From the IMG/VR virus record IMGVR_UViG_2671180770_000018: DNA of 4,131 nucleotides; one strand, given 5' to 3'. Positions 929 through 4,131 of the stretch are shown here, piece by piece. Source of the DNA: a virus (lineage: Duplodnaviria; Heunggongvirae; Uroviricota; Caudoviricetes). Each line of letters starts with the position of its first letter. The first letter of the stretch is position 1. The position numbers and the translations under genes were made by a program. Below the pieces are notes generated by a model that saw only the letters and a program-made list of their open reading frames with translations, searched no databases and was not told the origin of the DNA.

Positions 929-1369
929 ACCCCGCTATTGAGCCTCCTTCACAGTGATGCTGAATAACATAACTCAATGATATATCGATAAAATAATCTC
1001 TACATTTGAAAATGCACGGTAATTCTGAAATGCAAAAAATCAACCAAACCAGCGCAATGCCTGAAAAAACTGACGTTCACTGGAGTGGTCGGTTTAGCGT
1101 TGCACCAATGCTCGATAGGATGTACCGTTTTTGAAAAACAAGTAGTTATACACTTTGTGGGAGCCTATTGGGAACCTGTTATTCTTAGAAAGCATCATTT
1201 GCTCATCACTTCAATTGACCATGGTTAAAGCCAGCTATAAACTTGACAAACGAGGTAACTGGTTGCTTAGGCCCAAGTGGGCACACCATAAGAAGCTCAT
1301 GTTGGTGATGAAGCAACCCATGAAGTATCGAGAATAATTATAAAGTTCACTATCTTTGAGGTTTCTTAT

Positions 1370-1942
1370 ATGTTTTGCGAAGAAAAAGTAGCTCAAATGG
1401 CTGCATACCTACTTCTTAAGAGAGGTGGGCGCATGGCATATCTGAAATTGATGAAGCTGCTCTATCTGTCTAACCGCCAGTCGATTTTGAAGCATGGCAG
1501 GATGATCGGCGAAGATAGCCTTTACTCTATGAAATTTGGACCAGTCATGTCGAATACGCTGAACTTGATTCGCGGTAAGGCTGAAGGCATTGGTGACTAC
1601 TGGTACAACTTGATAGAGACGAACGGGCATAATGTATCGTTGCGTTCAGATCCGAGGGAAATGGATGCAGACGAGGTCTTTGATGAATTGAGTCGTGCAG
1701 ATATCCGGATTTTAGATGAAATCTATTCTCGGTATGGGCATATGAACCGATTTGATCTCGCAAATATGACGCATTTAGAAAGCGTTTGTCCAGAGTGGCA
1801 CGATCCTGGCAATTCTCGTAAGCCTATAGACCTGAAAGAAATGCTGATCAGTGAGGGTAAAAGCGAGGATGAGGCTAATCGCATAATTGGCAAAATGGAA
1901 GAATCTCAGAAACTTAAGGAATTTTCTTTGCAATTATCATGA
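1370..1942 (+). CDS. Panacea-domain (DUF4065; GepA/SocA/PanA-like) protein, putative antitoxin
   Basis: ATG at 1370 with GAGG at 1358-1361 and an 8-nt spacer; 190 aa. The N-terminal two thirds carry what I recognise as the Panacea/DUF4065 hallmark: LKLMKLLYLSNRQSILKHGRMIGEDSLYSMKFGPVMSNTL, then YWYNLIE, then HLESVCPEWHD. The C-terminal 35 residues are an acidic, probably helical tail. The TGA stop at 1940-1942 overlaps the next ATG (ATGA). Confidence 0.85.
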   Translation: MFCEEKVAQMAAYLLLKRGGRMAYLKLMKLLYLSNRQSILKHGRMIGEDSLYSMKFGPVMSNTLNLIRGKAEGIGDYWYNLIETNGHNVSLRSDPREMDADEVFDELSRADIRILDEIYSRYGHMNRFDLANMTHLESVCPEWHDPGNSRKPIDLKEMLISEGKSEDEANRIIGKMEESQKLKEFSLQLS

Positions 1943-2358
1943 CGGATTATCAGCCATACAGGAAAGGAACTGTGCTTGCCCCAACTGGACCATGCAATCA
2001 TCTTCATGTGATTTGTAATGATCCTGTTTATTACCCCGTTAACGATTGTTATTGTGTTTTAGTTGTTAATATTTCTAGTATCAAGGATGGTGTCCCCCAC
2101 GATCCGTCTTGCGTCTTGAATTCTGGTGATCATCGCTTTATCAAGCATCCAAGTTATGTTGTTTACGCTGAAGCTATAATTTGGCGAGTGGATAACATGG
2201 TTAGAAAGCAGCGATCGGGTGAGATTTCTGTTCATGATGATATGCCAGAAGCTACATTCAATAGAATTCTGGACGGTTTTGATATCTCTGATGAAGTTAC
2301 GCCAAAGAACCTTAAATTTAAAAATAAATATTGCGTATCATCTATTGATGATGAGTAA
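1939..2358 (+). CDS. Hypothetical protein translationally coupled to the Panacea gene; candidate toxin/effector with possible MazF/PemK-like fold
   Basis: ATG at 1939-1941 overlaps the upstream stop by 4 nt and has no Shine-Dalgarno of its own (nearest AAGGA is at 1916-1920, too far), which implies coupled translation; 139 aa, TAA at 2356-2358. By-eye similarity to MazF/PemK/Kid toxins: KGTVLAP near the N-terminus, CYCVLVVNISS (cf. MazF CLCVPCTTQ), VLNSGDH (cf. VVLSGQER), AIIWRVDN (cf. SIAWRARG), MPEATFNRILDGF (cf. APEELQLIKAKI). The N-terminal half is also rich in Cys/His. The fold assignment is unverified. Confidence 0.7.
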   Translation: MTDYQPYRKGTVLAPTGPCNHLHVICNDPVYYPVNDCYCVLVVNISSIKDGVPHDPSCVLNSGDHRFIKHPSYVVYAEAIIWRVDNMVRKQRSGEISVHDDMPEATFNRILDGFDISDEVTPKNLKFKNKYCVSSIDDE

Positions 2359-2397
2359 ACAACAGGAATTGTTTCGGTATAACTTCTGGAGTTTTCT

Positions 2398-2571
2398 ATG
2401 GAAGATCAAAAAGCAACCAAGCCACAGGTTAAGTTCGACACAATGAAAGCATTCGTAGGTATGGGTGCTGCTGTTGAAGTTCTGATGAAGGCTGCTCCTA
2501 ATGCGTTCACTCACGCTACTGTCTCTGGTAAAGAGCAGCAGGGTAAGCTTCGTCGTCTCAAAGCAGCATGA
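2398..2571 (+). CDS. Small hypothetical protein (57 aa), below the ORF track cutoff
   Basis: ATG at 2398 preceded by GGAG at 2388-2391 with a 6-nt spacer; open frame to TGA at 2569-2571. Translation: MEDQKATKPQVKFDTMKAFVGMGAAVEVLMKAAPNAFTHATVSGKEQQGKLRRLKAA. Codon choice (ggt, gct, cgt, ctg, aaa) looks like an expressed enterobacterial gene. A strong terminator begins 20 nt after the stop. The overlapping track ORF 2219-2446 is in another frame and lacks these signals. Confidence 0.5.
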   Translation: MEDQKATKPQVKFDTMKAFVGMGAAVEVLMKAAPNAFTHATVSGKEQQGKLRRLKAA

Positions 2572-2590
2572 TCATAGCTGGTGCTTTTTG

Positions 2591-2619
2591 AAAACCCGCC
2601 TTCAGGCGGGTTTTTTCTT
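2591..2619 (+). terminator. Rho-independent terminator, plus-strand oriented, possibly weakly bidirectional
   Basis: aaaacccgcc (2591-2600), loop ttca, ggcgggtttt (2605-2614): a perfect 10-bp stem with a GC-rich core, followed on the plus strand by a T-tract (ttttttcttt, 2611-2620). On the minus strand the hairpin is followed by caaaaag, so termination of the minus-strand operon here should be inefficient. Confidence 0.8.
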
Positions 2620-2900
2620 TAGTGATTTTCTTTGCCCTTCTGTTTGACTGTTCTGACCTGTTCCCACTCGATACGTCCTTCTTCTCGCCTTTTGTCTATG
2701 TATTCCGCAAGATCCTGAATATTGATGCAACGTTTTGCTTTTTGTGATGTGCCGATGCGATATGTTGGAACGGGCAACTTACAAGCGTTTGCTTTTGCTT
2801 CTGCCGTGGCTGGACTCATACCAAAGTACTTTTGGCTAACTGCTGAGAGTTCAATGTTTGGGGTATTGAATTCAGCCATCAGTAAAAACAAGGTGTTCAT
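2619..2900 (-). CDS. PrtN-family small DNA-binding protein (pyocin-activator-like; excisionase-like in enterobacterial prophages)
   Basis: The track ORF is 2619-2927, but the most plausible start is the third in-frame ATG at 2900-2898, which has GGAG (2910-2907) and a 6-nt spacer. The product then begins MNTLFLLMAEF and contains IQDLAEYIDKRREEG, both of which I recognise as PrtN-family features. TAA stop at 2621-2619. Confidence 0.7.
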   Translation of the reverse strand: MNTLFLLMAEFNTPNIELSAVSQKYFGMSPATAEAKANACKLPVPTYRIGTSQKAKRCINIQDLAEYIDKRREEGRIEWEQVRTVKQKGKENH

Positions 2901-2936
2901 AATTTTCTCCATCAAAACCGGCTGCACCCGGGAAAA

Positions 2937-3509
2937 TCATAATTCTGTGCTGGTGGCAGGAATTAATTTCTGCCAGATAGCGGAAACATATTTTGCCTGA
3001 TGACGGGCATCAGCCAGGGCGTTGTGCCGTTCGCCATCGAAAGGCATGTCCATTTTGGGGTCGAATCCGATGGAACGCCCAAGCGTAACGATCGTGCGTA
3101 CATCGTGGTCATTCCAGTATGCCCACGGGCAGATTTGTCCTGCTCGCTCATAAGCTCCACGTAAAATTACGTTGTCGAAGGTGGCTCCGTTACCCCAGAC
3201 TTTTAAATATTTCGTATTGTCTGCGTGCCGGTTAATGAAATGATTTAGTTCTGAGAGAGCATCGCTGATCGACAAAGTATCATCAATACAGATTGCAGCT
3301 CGTGCTTCAGGGCTTTGTTTCAACCACCACAGGATGGTATCGCCGTCAGGTGTAGCTCCTTGCTCCATAGCACTTTCCAGGCTAACAACCGTATAGAATT
3401 CTTGTCCGATGTCTCCGATTTCTGGAGTGAAGAACACCGCGCCAATGGAAACGATCGGTGCATCCTTATTTTTCCCCATCGTCTCAAGGTCGATCATTAA
3501 GTTGTTCAT
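2937..3509 (-). CDS. DnaQ-like DEDDh 3'-5' exonuclease (phage-type)
   Basis: The track ORF starts at a GTG at 3512, but the adjacent ATG at 3509-3507 has a strong Shine-Dalgarno, GGAGGTG (3521-3515), with a 5-nt spacer. The 190-aa product shows three exonuclease motifs: IDLET (Exo I, D and E), WGNGATFDN (Exo II, D) and HNALADA (Exo III, H and D). The start shares one nucleotide with the upstream stop (TGATG). Confidence 0.85.
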   Translation of the reverse strand: MNNLMIDLETMGKNKDAPIVSIGAVFFTPEIGDIGQEFYTVVSLESAMEQGATPDGDTILWWLKQSPEARAAICIDDTLSISDALSELNHFINRHADNTKYLKVWGNGATFDNVILRGAYERAGQICPWAYWNDHDVRTIVTLGRSIGFDPKMDMPFDGERHNALADARHQAKYVSAIWQKLIPATSTEL

Positions 3510-4075
3510 CACTTCACCTCCAGCGGCGGTTCCGGTAGCGGCATCCAGTGAGTTGCTTGCTCAATACCATTACCCGGCTTAATCGTTGCATCTCCGCGCC
3601 GAAAGGTGCTTCCGGTATAGCGTGCGGAGCATATTAGCGGTTCAACCTGAGAGCTATCGAAATTCACCGAAATAAGCACGTTCTGGCCCTTTTCAGGCAT
3701 TCGATCACTACAGCTTATCCAACTATCCGGAGTTCCCGGAGAGTTGCCATTTACATCGAAGTTTGGCTCTGCGTCCTGAACTAGGAGGATGTAACCATTT
3801 TTGGCTGTATCAAGTTCTAACGCCTCGGTGACGGTACCGAAATAGCGATTACCTAAATCAACATCACAAGTGCTTACATCAATGGAAACTTCCATGCCTT
3901 CGATTAATTCTGGCAAGTTGTAAGTTTGGCTTACAGGCTCTGCTTCCAGCGATACCAGTGCAATTCGTGCCAGTTCTTCCGCTTCTTCTGCTGGCAGTAC
4001 AACGTTGCTGCCAGGTCCGTATGTTTCGCGCCACTGCTGGATTGTCAGCAGTCGCCCTTTGGTAATAGTGATCAT
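3509..4075 (-). CDS. Phage DUF551-like protein
   Basis: ATG at 4075-4073 with GAAGGA about 8 nt upstream on the minus strand; 188 aa. The C-terminus reads ATHWMPLPEPPLEVK, which matches my memory of the conserved DUF551 C-terminal motif. The TGA stop at 3511-3509 overlaps the exonuclease ATG. Confidence 0.75.
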   Translation of the reverse strand: MITITKGRLLTIQQWRETYGPGSNVVLPAEEAEELARIALVSLEAEPVSQTYNLPELIEGMEVSIDVSTCDVDLGNRYFGTVTEALELDTAKNGYILLVQDAEPNFDVNGNSPGTPDSWISCSDRMPEKGQNVLISVNFDSSQVEPLICSARYTGSTFRRGDATIKPGNGIEQATHWMPLPEPPLEVK

Positions 4076-4131
4076 GCCGCGTTTCCTTCTTTCTTATTAA
4101 CAATCACACCGTCATATATTTCATTAAGGTG
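4072..4131 (-). CDS. 3' end of an upstream minus-strand gene, truncated by the window edge
   Basis: The minus-strand frame entering from 4131 is open for 19 codons (HLNEIYDGVIVNKKEGNAA) and ends at a TGA (4074-4072) that overlaps the DUF551 ATG in an ATGA arrangement. Only 60 nt are visible, so this is weak. Confidence 0.3.
   Translation of the reverse strand, partial: HLNEIYDGVIVNKKEGNAA

Follow-up and report, generated by a model that had tools for sequence, protein, structure and literature searches.

The window, by which we mean the whole 4,131-nt stretch of DNA analysed here, contains the attL region of a lambdoid prophage that has dusA as its insertion site. In this prophage, a cargo operon on the plus strand and the early-left operon on the minus strand face each other across a 47-nt gap, and a hairpin occupies the gap. 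The features are the following.

1009–1115, plus strand: attL region with the host-derived 5′ end of dusA (homology breakpoints; RefSeq partial tRNA-dihydrouridine synthase)
1370–1942, plus strand: PanA, Panacea/SocA-domain antitoxin gene, first of the cargo operon (Pfam PF13274, RefSeq)
1939–2358, plus strand: gene of a 139-aa putative toxin with a predicted MazF/Kid-like fold (AF2 model and Foldseek)
2398–2571, plus strand: conserved 57-aa ORF, third cargo cistron (phrog_2741, E 1e-34)
2560–2587, plus strand: upstream stem-loop AAAGCAgCA...UGgUGCUUU, whose loop contains the stop codon (RNAalifold consensus, 11 lineages)
2590–2615, plus strand: terminator hairpin (window scan, folding, d score, kept in 10 lineages)
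2591–2594, minus strand: run giving UUUU, followed by CAAAAAG, a weak minus-strand tail (sequence; d 16.8 vs 43.0)
2611–2620, plus strand: T-tract TTTTTTCTTT (sequence; in every lineage the ORF strand has five T or more)
2619–2900, minus strand: PrtN-family gene, likely excisionase/RDF (Pfam PF11112, E 4e-23; phrog_1300 'excisionase', E 1e-39)
2937–3509, minus strand: Rv2179c-like 3′-5′ exonuclease gene of the early-left operon (Pfam PF16473, E 1e-74; RefSeq '3'-5' exonuclease')
3509–4075, minus strand: DUF551 gene of the early-left operon (Pfam PF04448, E 2e-21)

Homology with the empty dusA site of O157 Sakai, where the gene order is yjbM-dusA-pspG, stops at 1115, and homology with phage Lys8385Vzw begins at 1009. 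A truncated dusA ORF spans 1012–1134. The dusA fragment and the host promoter are directed into the prophage on the cargo strand, and int is located across attP at the other prophage end. Term-seq data for O157 Sakai have reportedly been published.

The first cargo protein carries the Panacea domain (PF13274, E 2.2e-19, above the gathering score) and is named 'Panacea domain-containing protein' in RefSeq. The start of the 139-aa gene overlaps the PanA stop (ATGA). The AF2 model of its product has a mean pLDDT of 88.5, and its top 50 Foldseek matches in the PDB are all MazF, Kid or MoxT, with a best E of 5e-3 and TM of 0.5–0.6. Because of the overlap with a Panacea antitoxin gene and the exclusively MazF/Kid-like structure matches, ORF 1939–2358 plausibly encodes a toxin, as the initial annotation had proposed. 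The 139-aa protein has no match in Pfam, NCBIfam or PADLOC, and the latter two have none for any cargo protein. Sequence searches of the PDB with the excisionase, 139-aa and 57-aa proteins also gave no match. A scan for sigma-70 promoters of the cassette gave no convincing one, the candidate counts being not above the shuffled expectation and the best candidates, such as that at 1215–1243, matching the consensus at only 9 of 12 positions.

The PrtN-family gene is the final gene of the early-left operon, with a TAA stop at 2621–2619 and an alternative GTG start at 2927. Small, of the DNA-binding type and encoded where the early operon ends towards att, its product likely belongs to the excisionase/RDF class, and the mEp460 homologue is annotated as excisionase. 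Homologues of prtN occur in 60 of 94 dusA islands (PMC4482086). A search of genome contigs with the excisionase retrieved mostly distant Burkholderiales loci, none with a comparable junction. In the 458-nt pL leader of Lys8385Vzw, neither a plausible N-like antiterminator ORF nor an Rfam match was found.

The initial annotation had placed a hairpin between two convergent genes, and both are there. The 57-aa ORF stops at 2569–2571 on the plus strand and faces the PrtN-family stop on the minus strand. The hairpin core read from the sequence is 2595–2610, with CCCGCC (2595–2600) and GGCGGG (2605–2610) around the loop TTCA, and A:U and G:U pairs lengthen it to 2590–2615. Its folding energy is −19.3 kcal/mol on the plus strand (z −3.5) and −18.1 on the minus strand (z −4.6). 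It ranks best among the terminator-like matches of the window scan, which returned 7 sites against 2.8 expected. Among more than 80 near-identical prophages, the hairpin varies by a G/A change in the loop, one G:U-preserving change in the stem and one change in A-tract length.

On the plus strand, the GC-rich stem-loop is followed by the U-rich T6CT3 tail, the final two bases of which are shared with the excisionase stop codon. The 57-aa stop codon lies 18 nt ahead of the extended stem and 23 nt ahead of the GC core, leaving enough room for the hairpin to fold. We scored both faces with a d'Aubenton-Carafa-type d score, for which random 91-nt windows reach −4.7 at their 99th percentile. The plus face scored 43.0, and three textbook terminators scored 31–37. 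Only three sites in the whole window have d above 0. Between the host yjbM-like terminator at 690–711 (d 12.5) and the early-left genes, the hairpin is the only such site on the plus strand. By these sequence rules the plus face is a Rho-independent terminator, and we infer its actual efficiency from the same rules.

On the minus strand, the tail is TTTTCAAAAAG and its four U directly abut the stem. This face scored 16.8, higher than the yjbM-like terminator and above the random percentile, and is the sole minus-strand site with d above 0 in the window. The initial annotation held that a T-tract exists only on the plus strand. The asymmetry is real (T6CT3 vs T4) and the hairpin suits plus-strand termination far better, but "only" is too strong because UUUU adjoins the stem on the other strand.

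Only 4 nt separate the excisionase stop codon from the extended stem, and 8 nt separate it from the GC core. This asymmetry in stop-codon spacing, 4–8 nt on the minus strand vs 18–23 nt on the plus strand, had been missed in the initial annotation. For the lambda tR2 terminator in E. coli, the efficiency dropped from about 0.9 to below 0.1 with a stop codon 5 bp away, was variable at 17–18 nt spacing and reached a plateau past about 27–30 nt (PMC4824070). Read-through on the minus strand is thus physically plausible, since the stop codon is so close to the stem, and on grounds beyond those first offered for it.

As read from its homologous loci, the hairpin at 2590–2615 is owned by the 57-aa gene, and the terminator travels with this gene between sites. 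The 57-aa protein has relatives in 48 clusters of Enterobacterales with 63–98% identity, nearly all of 57 aa, and the ORF has a third-codon-position excess of 145/124/328. The gene is found at two unrelated phage sites. One is between att and xis, as in this window, mEp460 and Salmonella dusA prophages, and the other is between Q/antiterminator and holin genes, where the copies are co-directional and have no convergent partner. Homology with mEp460 begins at 2385, 13 nt ahead of the ATG of the 57-aa ORF.

In all ten lineages compared, a hairpin with at least five T lies on the gene's own strand, 23–28 nt past the stop. Stems and loops differ by lineage (CCCGCC/TTCA, CCCGC/CTCGC, GCCTCGG/TAAT and others), so that hairpin and U-tract are retained despite the change of sequence. 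The d score ranges over 24.5–51.7 on the ORF strand and from −40 to +16.8 on the opposite strand. Convergent copies do not score higher on the opposite strand, with −9.1 in lineage L190 and −2.4 in L142, vs +16.4 in the co-directional L104. The A-run behind the minus-strand U's also varies, with CATTC, CTTTC, CTACA or CTAGA in other lineages. It is not longer where genes converge, as the two other convergent variants have CATTC (L190) and CTTTC (L142).

These homologues bear on the suggestion that the hairpin is a bidirectional terminator, in which UUUU and the upstream A6, aided by head-on collisions, also halt the early-left transcripts and leave no meaningful antisense RNA. The two runs could still form a usable terminator of this kind. 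The minus face outscores 690–711 as the only candidate on its strand, the stem folds with equal stability on either strand, and bidirectional terminators at convergent E. coli genes rely on a stem-loop and collisions rather than perfect U-tracts (bioRxiv 10.1101/2022.10.23.513370). However, with the stop codon so near, the minus-strand hairpin should be strongly occluded by the ribosome (PMC4824070), and in single-molecule experiments only 9% of polymerases were freed at the face with the shorter U-tract under one-directional transcription (bioRxiv 10.1101/2022.10.23.513370). The U-tracts of the two strands are not comparable (TTTTCAAAAAG vs TTTTTTCTTT) and the convergent homologues lack a signal on both strands. 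The U-run lost in these copies is therefore not maintained for a bidirectional role, and we consider such a role unlikely.

The stem at 2560–2587 belongs to the 3′ end of the 57-aa gene, and its pairs are mostly invariant with slight covariation. Together with the U-rich linker, the terminator and the U tail, it might make an Hfq-type sRNA derived from the 3′UTR, and the main role of the terminator hairpin would then be in sRNA biogenesis and stability. Across genera, the 3′ end keeps its two hairpins and their spacing, it has a long U tail, and this phage family does encode prophage sRNAs such as sRNA-17, although at another place. Yet the upstream stem overlaps coding sequence with almost no covariation, and no Rfam family reached its threshold, the best scores being 30 bits against a GA of 55 and 24 against 80. 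We give very little credence to an sRNA here.

Several candidates of structured RNA were set aside. Rfam matches at E ≤ 1 were taken as chance, namely rnk_pseudo (29.8 bits, GA 55), RNAI (24.4, GA 47), sroH (24.1, GA 80) and P9 (22.3, GA 43). All these sub-threshold matches were driven by the terminator. The E. coli K1 sRNA-17 is not this locus, as both the sRNA and its primers match the pL leader of mEp460-like phages, which the window does not include. A long-range pairing of 2540–2547 with 2631–2639, on either side of the hairpin, was rejected as a sib-like structure. Its z-scores are weak (−2.0 and −2.6), its two arms belong to unrelated coding regions, and it is missing from junctions with another downstream gene.

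The junction itself varies among related phages. Where phages carry other cargo, the backbone homology ends at about 2638–2650, in the last codons of the excisionase gene. Such sister dusA phages have different hairpins at the junction, with gaps of 26–33 nt. Across 5,426 complete E. coli genomes, junction types A, B and C were present in 562, 79 and 50, and E. coli O103 RM8385 has a junction 100% identical to that of the window. Type B, the second commonest and found for example in phiSTEC1575-Stx2k and PhiR47_1, has the opposite polarity, with its T-tract on the excisionase strand (d +17.6 vs −18), and type C has its T-tract on the cargo strand. All three types and a CoiA variant share one att-to-xis site, with a varying distance to att. 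The cargo from att to the 57-aa ORF measures 683 to about 2,800 nt. Hence, among close phages, the presence of the unit at a fixed site is variable.

According to the initial annotation, minus-strand read-through as antisense RNA would tie the cargo expression to the early transcription of the prophage. In its selected form, the hairpin would be a one-way valve that lets read-through at induction or superinfection alter cargo expression by antisense RNA over the 57-aa ORF and the toxin and antitoxin genes. The minus tail of four U only, the 4–8 nt spacing, at which tR2 termination was almost lost in vivo (PMC4824070), and the lack of a further minus-strand site with d above 0 downstream within the window all agree with it. 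So does the orientation of the cargo, which is always convergent with xis throughout types A, B and C.

Nevertheless, the tie is unsupported. The polarity is a property of the 57-aa cassette, which keeps the same one-way terminator at the co-directional late sites, and the variable A-run that encodes the minus-strand U's is not shaped by convergence. Sister dusA phages with other toxin-antitoxin cargo show a different hairpin or, in type B, the reverse polarity. The cargo is freely swapped, so there is no fixed antisense target. Moreover, any antisense RNA over the cargo would be untranslated and have more C than G, with a skew up to 0.37, and would therefore be a likely Rho substrate. Antisense transcription would also meet head-on traffic across the cargo, and head-on collisions at hairpins block read-through (bioRxiv 10.1101/2022.10.23.513370). 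We regard the selected valve as quite unlikely.

A variant is that the valve depends on state, the expression of cargo and recombinase reporting the physical form of the phage genome. In the excised circle, int is downstream of xis on the same strand, so a leak would reach int only when the genome is circular. This would be a split operon of the Bertani type, in which the leak of the integrated form runs antisense over the PanA/MazF-fold module into the host and the host dusA promoter feeds the cargo in the integrated state only. We hold this variant to be highly improbable.

The reading that we favour, and consider probable, is that the hairpin is the ordinary terminator of the mobile 57-aa gene. 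Because it is the gene's own terminator, its one-sidedness would be inherited rather than the mark of a special switch. The 57-aa gene and the terminator would form a mobile accessory unit of the moron type that moves jointly between lambdoid phages. In this prophage, the unit is situated between attL in dusA and the excisionase-like gene, with the PanA and MazF-fold genes spliced ahead of it.

On the plus strand, the terminator would stop transcription from the cargo promoter and probably also read-in from the host dusA promoter, keeping antisense transcription out of xis and the early-left operon. In the late-region copies, the same terminator would protect the holin gene from incoming transcription. 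The type B phages, whose cargo-strand terminator looks poor, weaken this insulation argument. On the minus strand, the terminator would be weak and occluded by the ribosome, so that some early-left transcription probably passes it on induction. Such a leak would arise incidentally, from a one-way element that happens to sit where two operons converge, and would not be a coupling under selection.

Thus, a terminator that works in one direction between convergent genes need not be regulatory, and here its polarity is explained by the gene of origin. The 57-aa gene and its terminator make up a portable unit with clear limits, which about 10% of complete E. coli genomes contain and which occupies two different moron sites. 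The unit also marks a hot spot for swapping toxin-antitoxin cargo, including PanA/MazF-fold genes, another PanAT pair, YafMO and a CoiA-like gene. In dusA-integrating phages, the cargo comes to lie immediately behind the host dusA promoter, and the hairpin is the first terminator that follows. This placement may make the cargo expression integration-dependent.

As in the PanAT systems (Kurata et al. 2022, PMC8832971), a Panacea-domain antitoxin gene adjoins a small toxin-like gene in a prophage. MazF-like RNases are among the partners of the described PanT classes (PMC8832971), whereas the 139-aa putative partner fits no sequence family and differs from the membrane toxin of the validated E. 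coli pair. With the KplE1/HK620 modules (Panis et al. 2010, PMC2951348), the locus shares an int that is not co-transcribed with the RDF gene, adjoins att and overlaps the att site by its upstream region, and it has related early-left genes (yfdQ/yfdR-like). It differs in its DusA-type integrase into dusA, its PrtN-family RDF in place of TorI and the cargo inserted between att and RDF.

Intrinsic terminators that act in both directions between convergent E. coli genes (Wang et al., bioRxiv 10.1101/2022.10.23.513370; Ju et al. 2019, as described there) likewise have one stem-loop between convergent stops, with an A-run upstream and a T-run downstream, and are unequal in the two directions according to U-tract length. 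Here the asymmetry is strong, the weak side is not conserved and the element demonstrably belongs to one gene. Lambda tI/sib is similar in being att-proximal at the end of the recombination genes driven by pL, and in that terminated and read-through transcripts could have different fates. Unlike it, this hairpin follows xis and is not distal to int in a way that only read-through would form an RNase III site, int being across attP. The cargo cassette here is exchangeable, and no extended structure of the RNase III type is conserved.

Phage morons in the sense of Hendrix and Juhala are accessory genes with their own terminator between backbone genes. The 57-aa unit resembles them in that phages nearly identical elsewhere can have it, lack it or exchange it, and in having its own strong intrinsic terminator, which follows the gene to unrelated sites. 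The sites are classical for morons (att-proximal and Q-to-lysis), and the orientation keeps the unit outside the neighbouring phage operon. The differences are that no convincing dedicated promoter was found in the cassette and that the unit is fused behind the PanA/MazF-fold pair, where the host dusA promoter may feed it. Overall, the locus has an ordinary phage moron architecture.

The hairpin between the 57-aa ORF and the excisionase-like PrtN-family gene is best explained as an ordinary one-way intrinsic terminator of a portable accessory gene, which happens to stand at a convergent junction. The window has the following features.

43–648: DUF2713 (yjbM-like) ORF, host chromosome
686–715 (690–711 in the d scoring): terminator of the yjbM-like gene, host
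1009–1115: attL of a dusA-integrating lambdoid prophage
1370–1942, plus strand: Panacea-domain antitoxin gene (PF13274)
1939–2358, plus strand: 139-aa ORF, overlapping the antitoxin gene
2398–2571, plus strand: 57-aa ORF
2595–2610: hairpin core CCCGCC-TTCA-GGCGGG, lengthened by A:U pairs to 2590–2615
2619–2900, minus strand: PrtN-family gene of the early-left operon, excisionase in PHROGs and in the mEp460 annotation
2937–3509, minus strand: Rv2179c-like 3′-5′ exonuclease gene, early-left operon
3509–4075, minus strand: DUF551 gene, early-left operon

The E. coli chromosome spans 1 to about 1115 and keeps the first 35 codons of dusA. The attL is assigned because the match to O157 Sakai, whose dusA site is empty, stops at 1115 and that to the temperate phage Lys8385Vzw starts at 1009. 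The nearest phage records are Lys8385Vzw (99% over 1009–4131) and mEp460, and the three minus-strand genes are the final ones of the early-left operon. The DUF2713 frame is open from 43, after an in-frame stop at 40–42, with no ATG, GTG or TTG before 325. It is probably a pseudogene, since the RefSeq annotation of strain CAU16175 gives the orthologue a frameshift.

The convergent stop codons are 47 nt apart with the hairpin in between. It folds with −19.3 and −18.1 kcal/mol on the plus and minus strands (z-scores of −3.5 and −4.6), and the stem is followed by TTTTTTCTTT on the plus strand and TTTTCAAAAAG on the minus strand. Both faces, the hairpin read as a terminator on either strand, were graded by a d'Aubenton-Carafa-type score d, on which three textbook terminators reach 31–37. 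The plus face scores 43.0 versus 16.8 for the minus face, and the 99th percentile of random 91-nt windows is −4.7. Within the window, d is above 0 at just three sites, namely both hairpin faces and the host terminator (12.5). The asymmetry is real and large, yet the minus strand has some U-tract with four U's, so the initial annotation was right about a strong asymmetry but not about a T-tract on the plus strand only.

The stop-codon spacing, absent from that annotation, is a second asymmetry. The excisionase stop codon (2621–2619) leaves 4 nt to the extended stem and 8 nt to the GC core, compared with 18 and 23 nt, respectively, for the 57-aa ORF stop. In E. coli, the lambda tR2 efficiency drops from about 0.9 to below 0.1 with a stop codon at 5 bp, and its plateau is reached only past about 27–30 nt (PMC4824070). 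As both asymmetries agree in direction, the hairpin looks built for the plus strand, and the minus strand should leak under coupled translation.

The 57-aa ORF is a genuine conserved gene. It matches phrog_2741, and its 48 protein clusters of 63–98% identity, nearly all 57 aa long, span Escherichia, Salmonella, Enterobacter, Cronobacter, Atlantibacter, Franconibacter and Hafnia, with a third-position excess in the substitutions by codon position (145/124/328). Usually a 177–179-aa ORF (phrog_4350) is the upstream partner in a two-gene cassette, found at two unrelated phage sites. In mEp460 and Salmonella dusA prophages, the cassette lies next to att, with the PrtN-family gene on its other side. 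In other lambdoid prophages, it stands in the stretch from the Q/antiterminator gene to holin, and the next gene is co-directional. Copies of the cassette come from E. coli, Salmonella, Enterobacter and Hafnia, among others (loci L003 4255–5158, L101–L109 and L190–L198). In the window, the mEp460 homology begins at 2385, 13 nt ahead of the 57-aa ORF ATG, and the PanA/139-aa pair has taken the place of the 177-aa partner.

In 10 of 10 lineages, a hairpin with at least 5 T lies on the ORF's own strand, 23–28 nt past its stop, despite varied stems and loops (CCCGCC/TTCA, CCCGCC/TTCC, CCCGC/CTCGC, CCCGC/TATAA, CCCGCC/ATCTT and GCCTCGG/TAAT). The scores are 24.5–51.7 on the ORF strand versus −40 to +16.8 on the opposite strand. 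The upstream A-run that gives the minus-strand U's varies as GAAAA, GAAAAA, GAAAG, GAATG, TGTAG and CTAGG. It is not longer at convergent junctions, as the other two convergent variants have CATTC (d −9.1) and CTTTC (−2.4), while a co-directional copy has a minus tail of TTTTT (+16.4). Because the one-way hairpin follows the ORF in all ten lineages at both sites, it belongs to the 57-aa gene, its polarity having come with the cassette. Separately, a conserved stem AAAGCAgCA...UGgUGCUUU (2560–2587) with the stop codon inside precedes a U-rich linker and the terminator, giving an sRNA-like two-hairpin 3′ end; covariation is almost nil.

Where dusA phages carry other cargo, their homology to the window stops at about 2638–2650, within the final excisionase codons, and the hairpins differ, in gaps of 26–33 nt. 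In type B, with another PanA/PanT pair (phiSTEC1575-Stx2k, PhiR47_1 and 1720a-02), the stop codon of the cargo gene opens the hairpin, and the excisionase strand bears the T-tract TTTTTCTTTAT (d +17.6 on that strand versus −18 on the cargo strand), a polarity that mirrors the window junction. At the sister-phage loci L005 (1350–1371) and L007 (1210–1228), the junction hairpin begins with the three bases of the cargo toxin stop codon, and ribosome occlusion would act on the cargo strand, also a mirror image of the window. Type C with YafM/YafO cargo (PhiR40_1) has its T-tract on the cargo strand, with d of 23.2 versus 4.7 on the weak opposite face. Of 5,426 complete E. coli genomes, 562 have the window's own type A junction, 79 have type B and 50 have type C.

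In ETEC H10407 (L199 2700–4040), a roughly 1.35-kb CoiA-like cassette sits exactly in place of the hairpin stem. This cassette is bounded by long, imperfect inverted repeats, and only the T-tract is left beside the excisionase gene. In 80 near-identical IMG/VR prophages, the only hairpin changes are a loop G/A, one stem change keeping G:U and one A-tract length, with att distances of 683 to about 2,800 nt. Since the cargo, hairpins and att distances vary, the att-to-xis site is a cargo-exchange hot spot without a fixed antisense target or terminator polarity. The proposal that minus-strand readthrough ties cargo expression to induction is physically plausible as to the leak, given the short U-run and near stop codon, but selected coupling is unsupported with the inherited polarity and the varying target.

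On the minus strand, termination would be partial with an appreciable leak. The leaked RNA has more C than G (skew up to 0.37) and would be untranslated, so it is likely a Rho substrate. Leaking polymerases would also collide with opposing ones. At a convergent E. coli terminator, polymerase collisions block readthrough and one-directional release is only 9% and 39%, depending on the U-tract length (bioRxiv 10.1101/2022.10.23.513370). If the early-left transcription were processively antiterminated, the U-tract quality would be irrelevant; the 458-nt pL leader of Lys8385Vzw showed neither an N-like ORF nor a known RNA. The ArcA-regulated sRNA-17 from strain RS218 of E. coli K1 (PMC7719688) maps outside the window, to about 12020–12210 of L002 (Lys8385Vzw). 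In this phage family, these positions belong to the long untranslated leader running from the repressor gene to the early-left operon's first gene.

No plus-strand site other than the hairpin resembles a terminator from the host one at 690–711 up to the early-left genes. The hairpin would stop transcripts from the cargo as well as host read-in ahead of any antisense entry into xis, and at the late-region copies the same terminator would keep moron transcripts from the holin gene. The truncated dusA (1009–1134; context 716–1370) and its promoter face into the prophage on the cargo strand. As no terminator-like site intervenes before 2590, this host promoter could transcribe the cargo, only in the integrated phage. 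Only the portable 57-aa cassette and this read-in merit a small follow-up.

For the 139-aa ORF, the Pfam, NCBIfam, PADLOC and PDB sequence searches gave no family match. Its AlphaFold2 model is confident (mean pLDDT of 88.5), and all top 50 Foldseek hits in PDB are MazF/Kid/MoxT toxins (best E of 5e-3, TM of 0.5–0.6). RNase-type toxins are among the known partners of Panacea antitoxins (PMC8832971). With this predicted fold and pairing, the initial label of toxin gene is reasonable as a prediction, and the protein likely represents an uncharacterised putative PanT class.

The phage-genome order is dinI(−), int(−), attP, cargo(+), hairpin, xis-like(−) ... repressor(−) and cro(+), and therefore int and xis are parted by integration. 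A prtN homologue was reported, with no role assigned to it, in 60 of 94 dusA islands (PMC4482086). The int/xis separation resembles the arrangement in KplE1-type modules, with one promoter for int and another for the directionality factor (PMC2951348).
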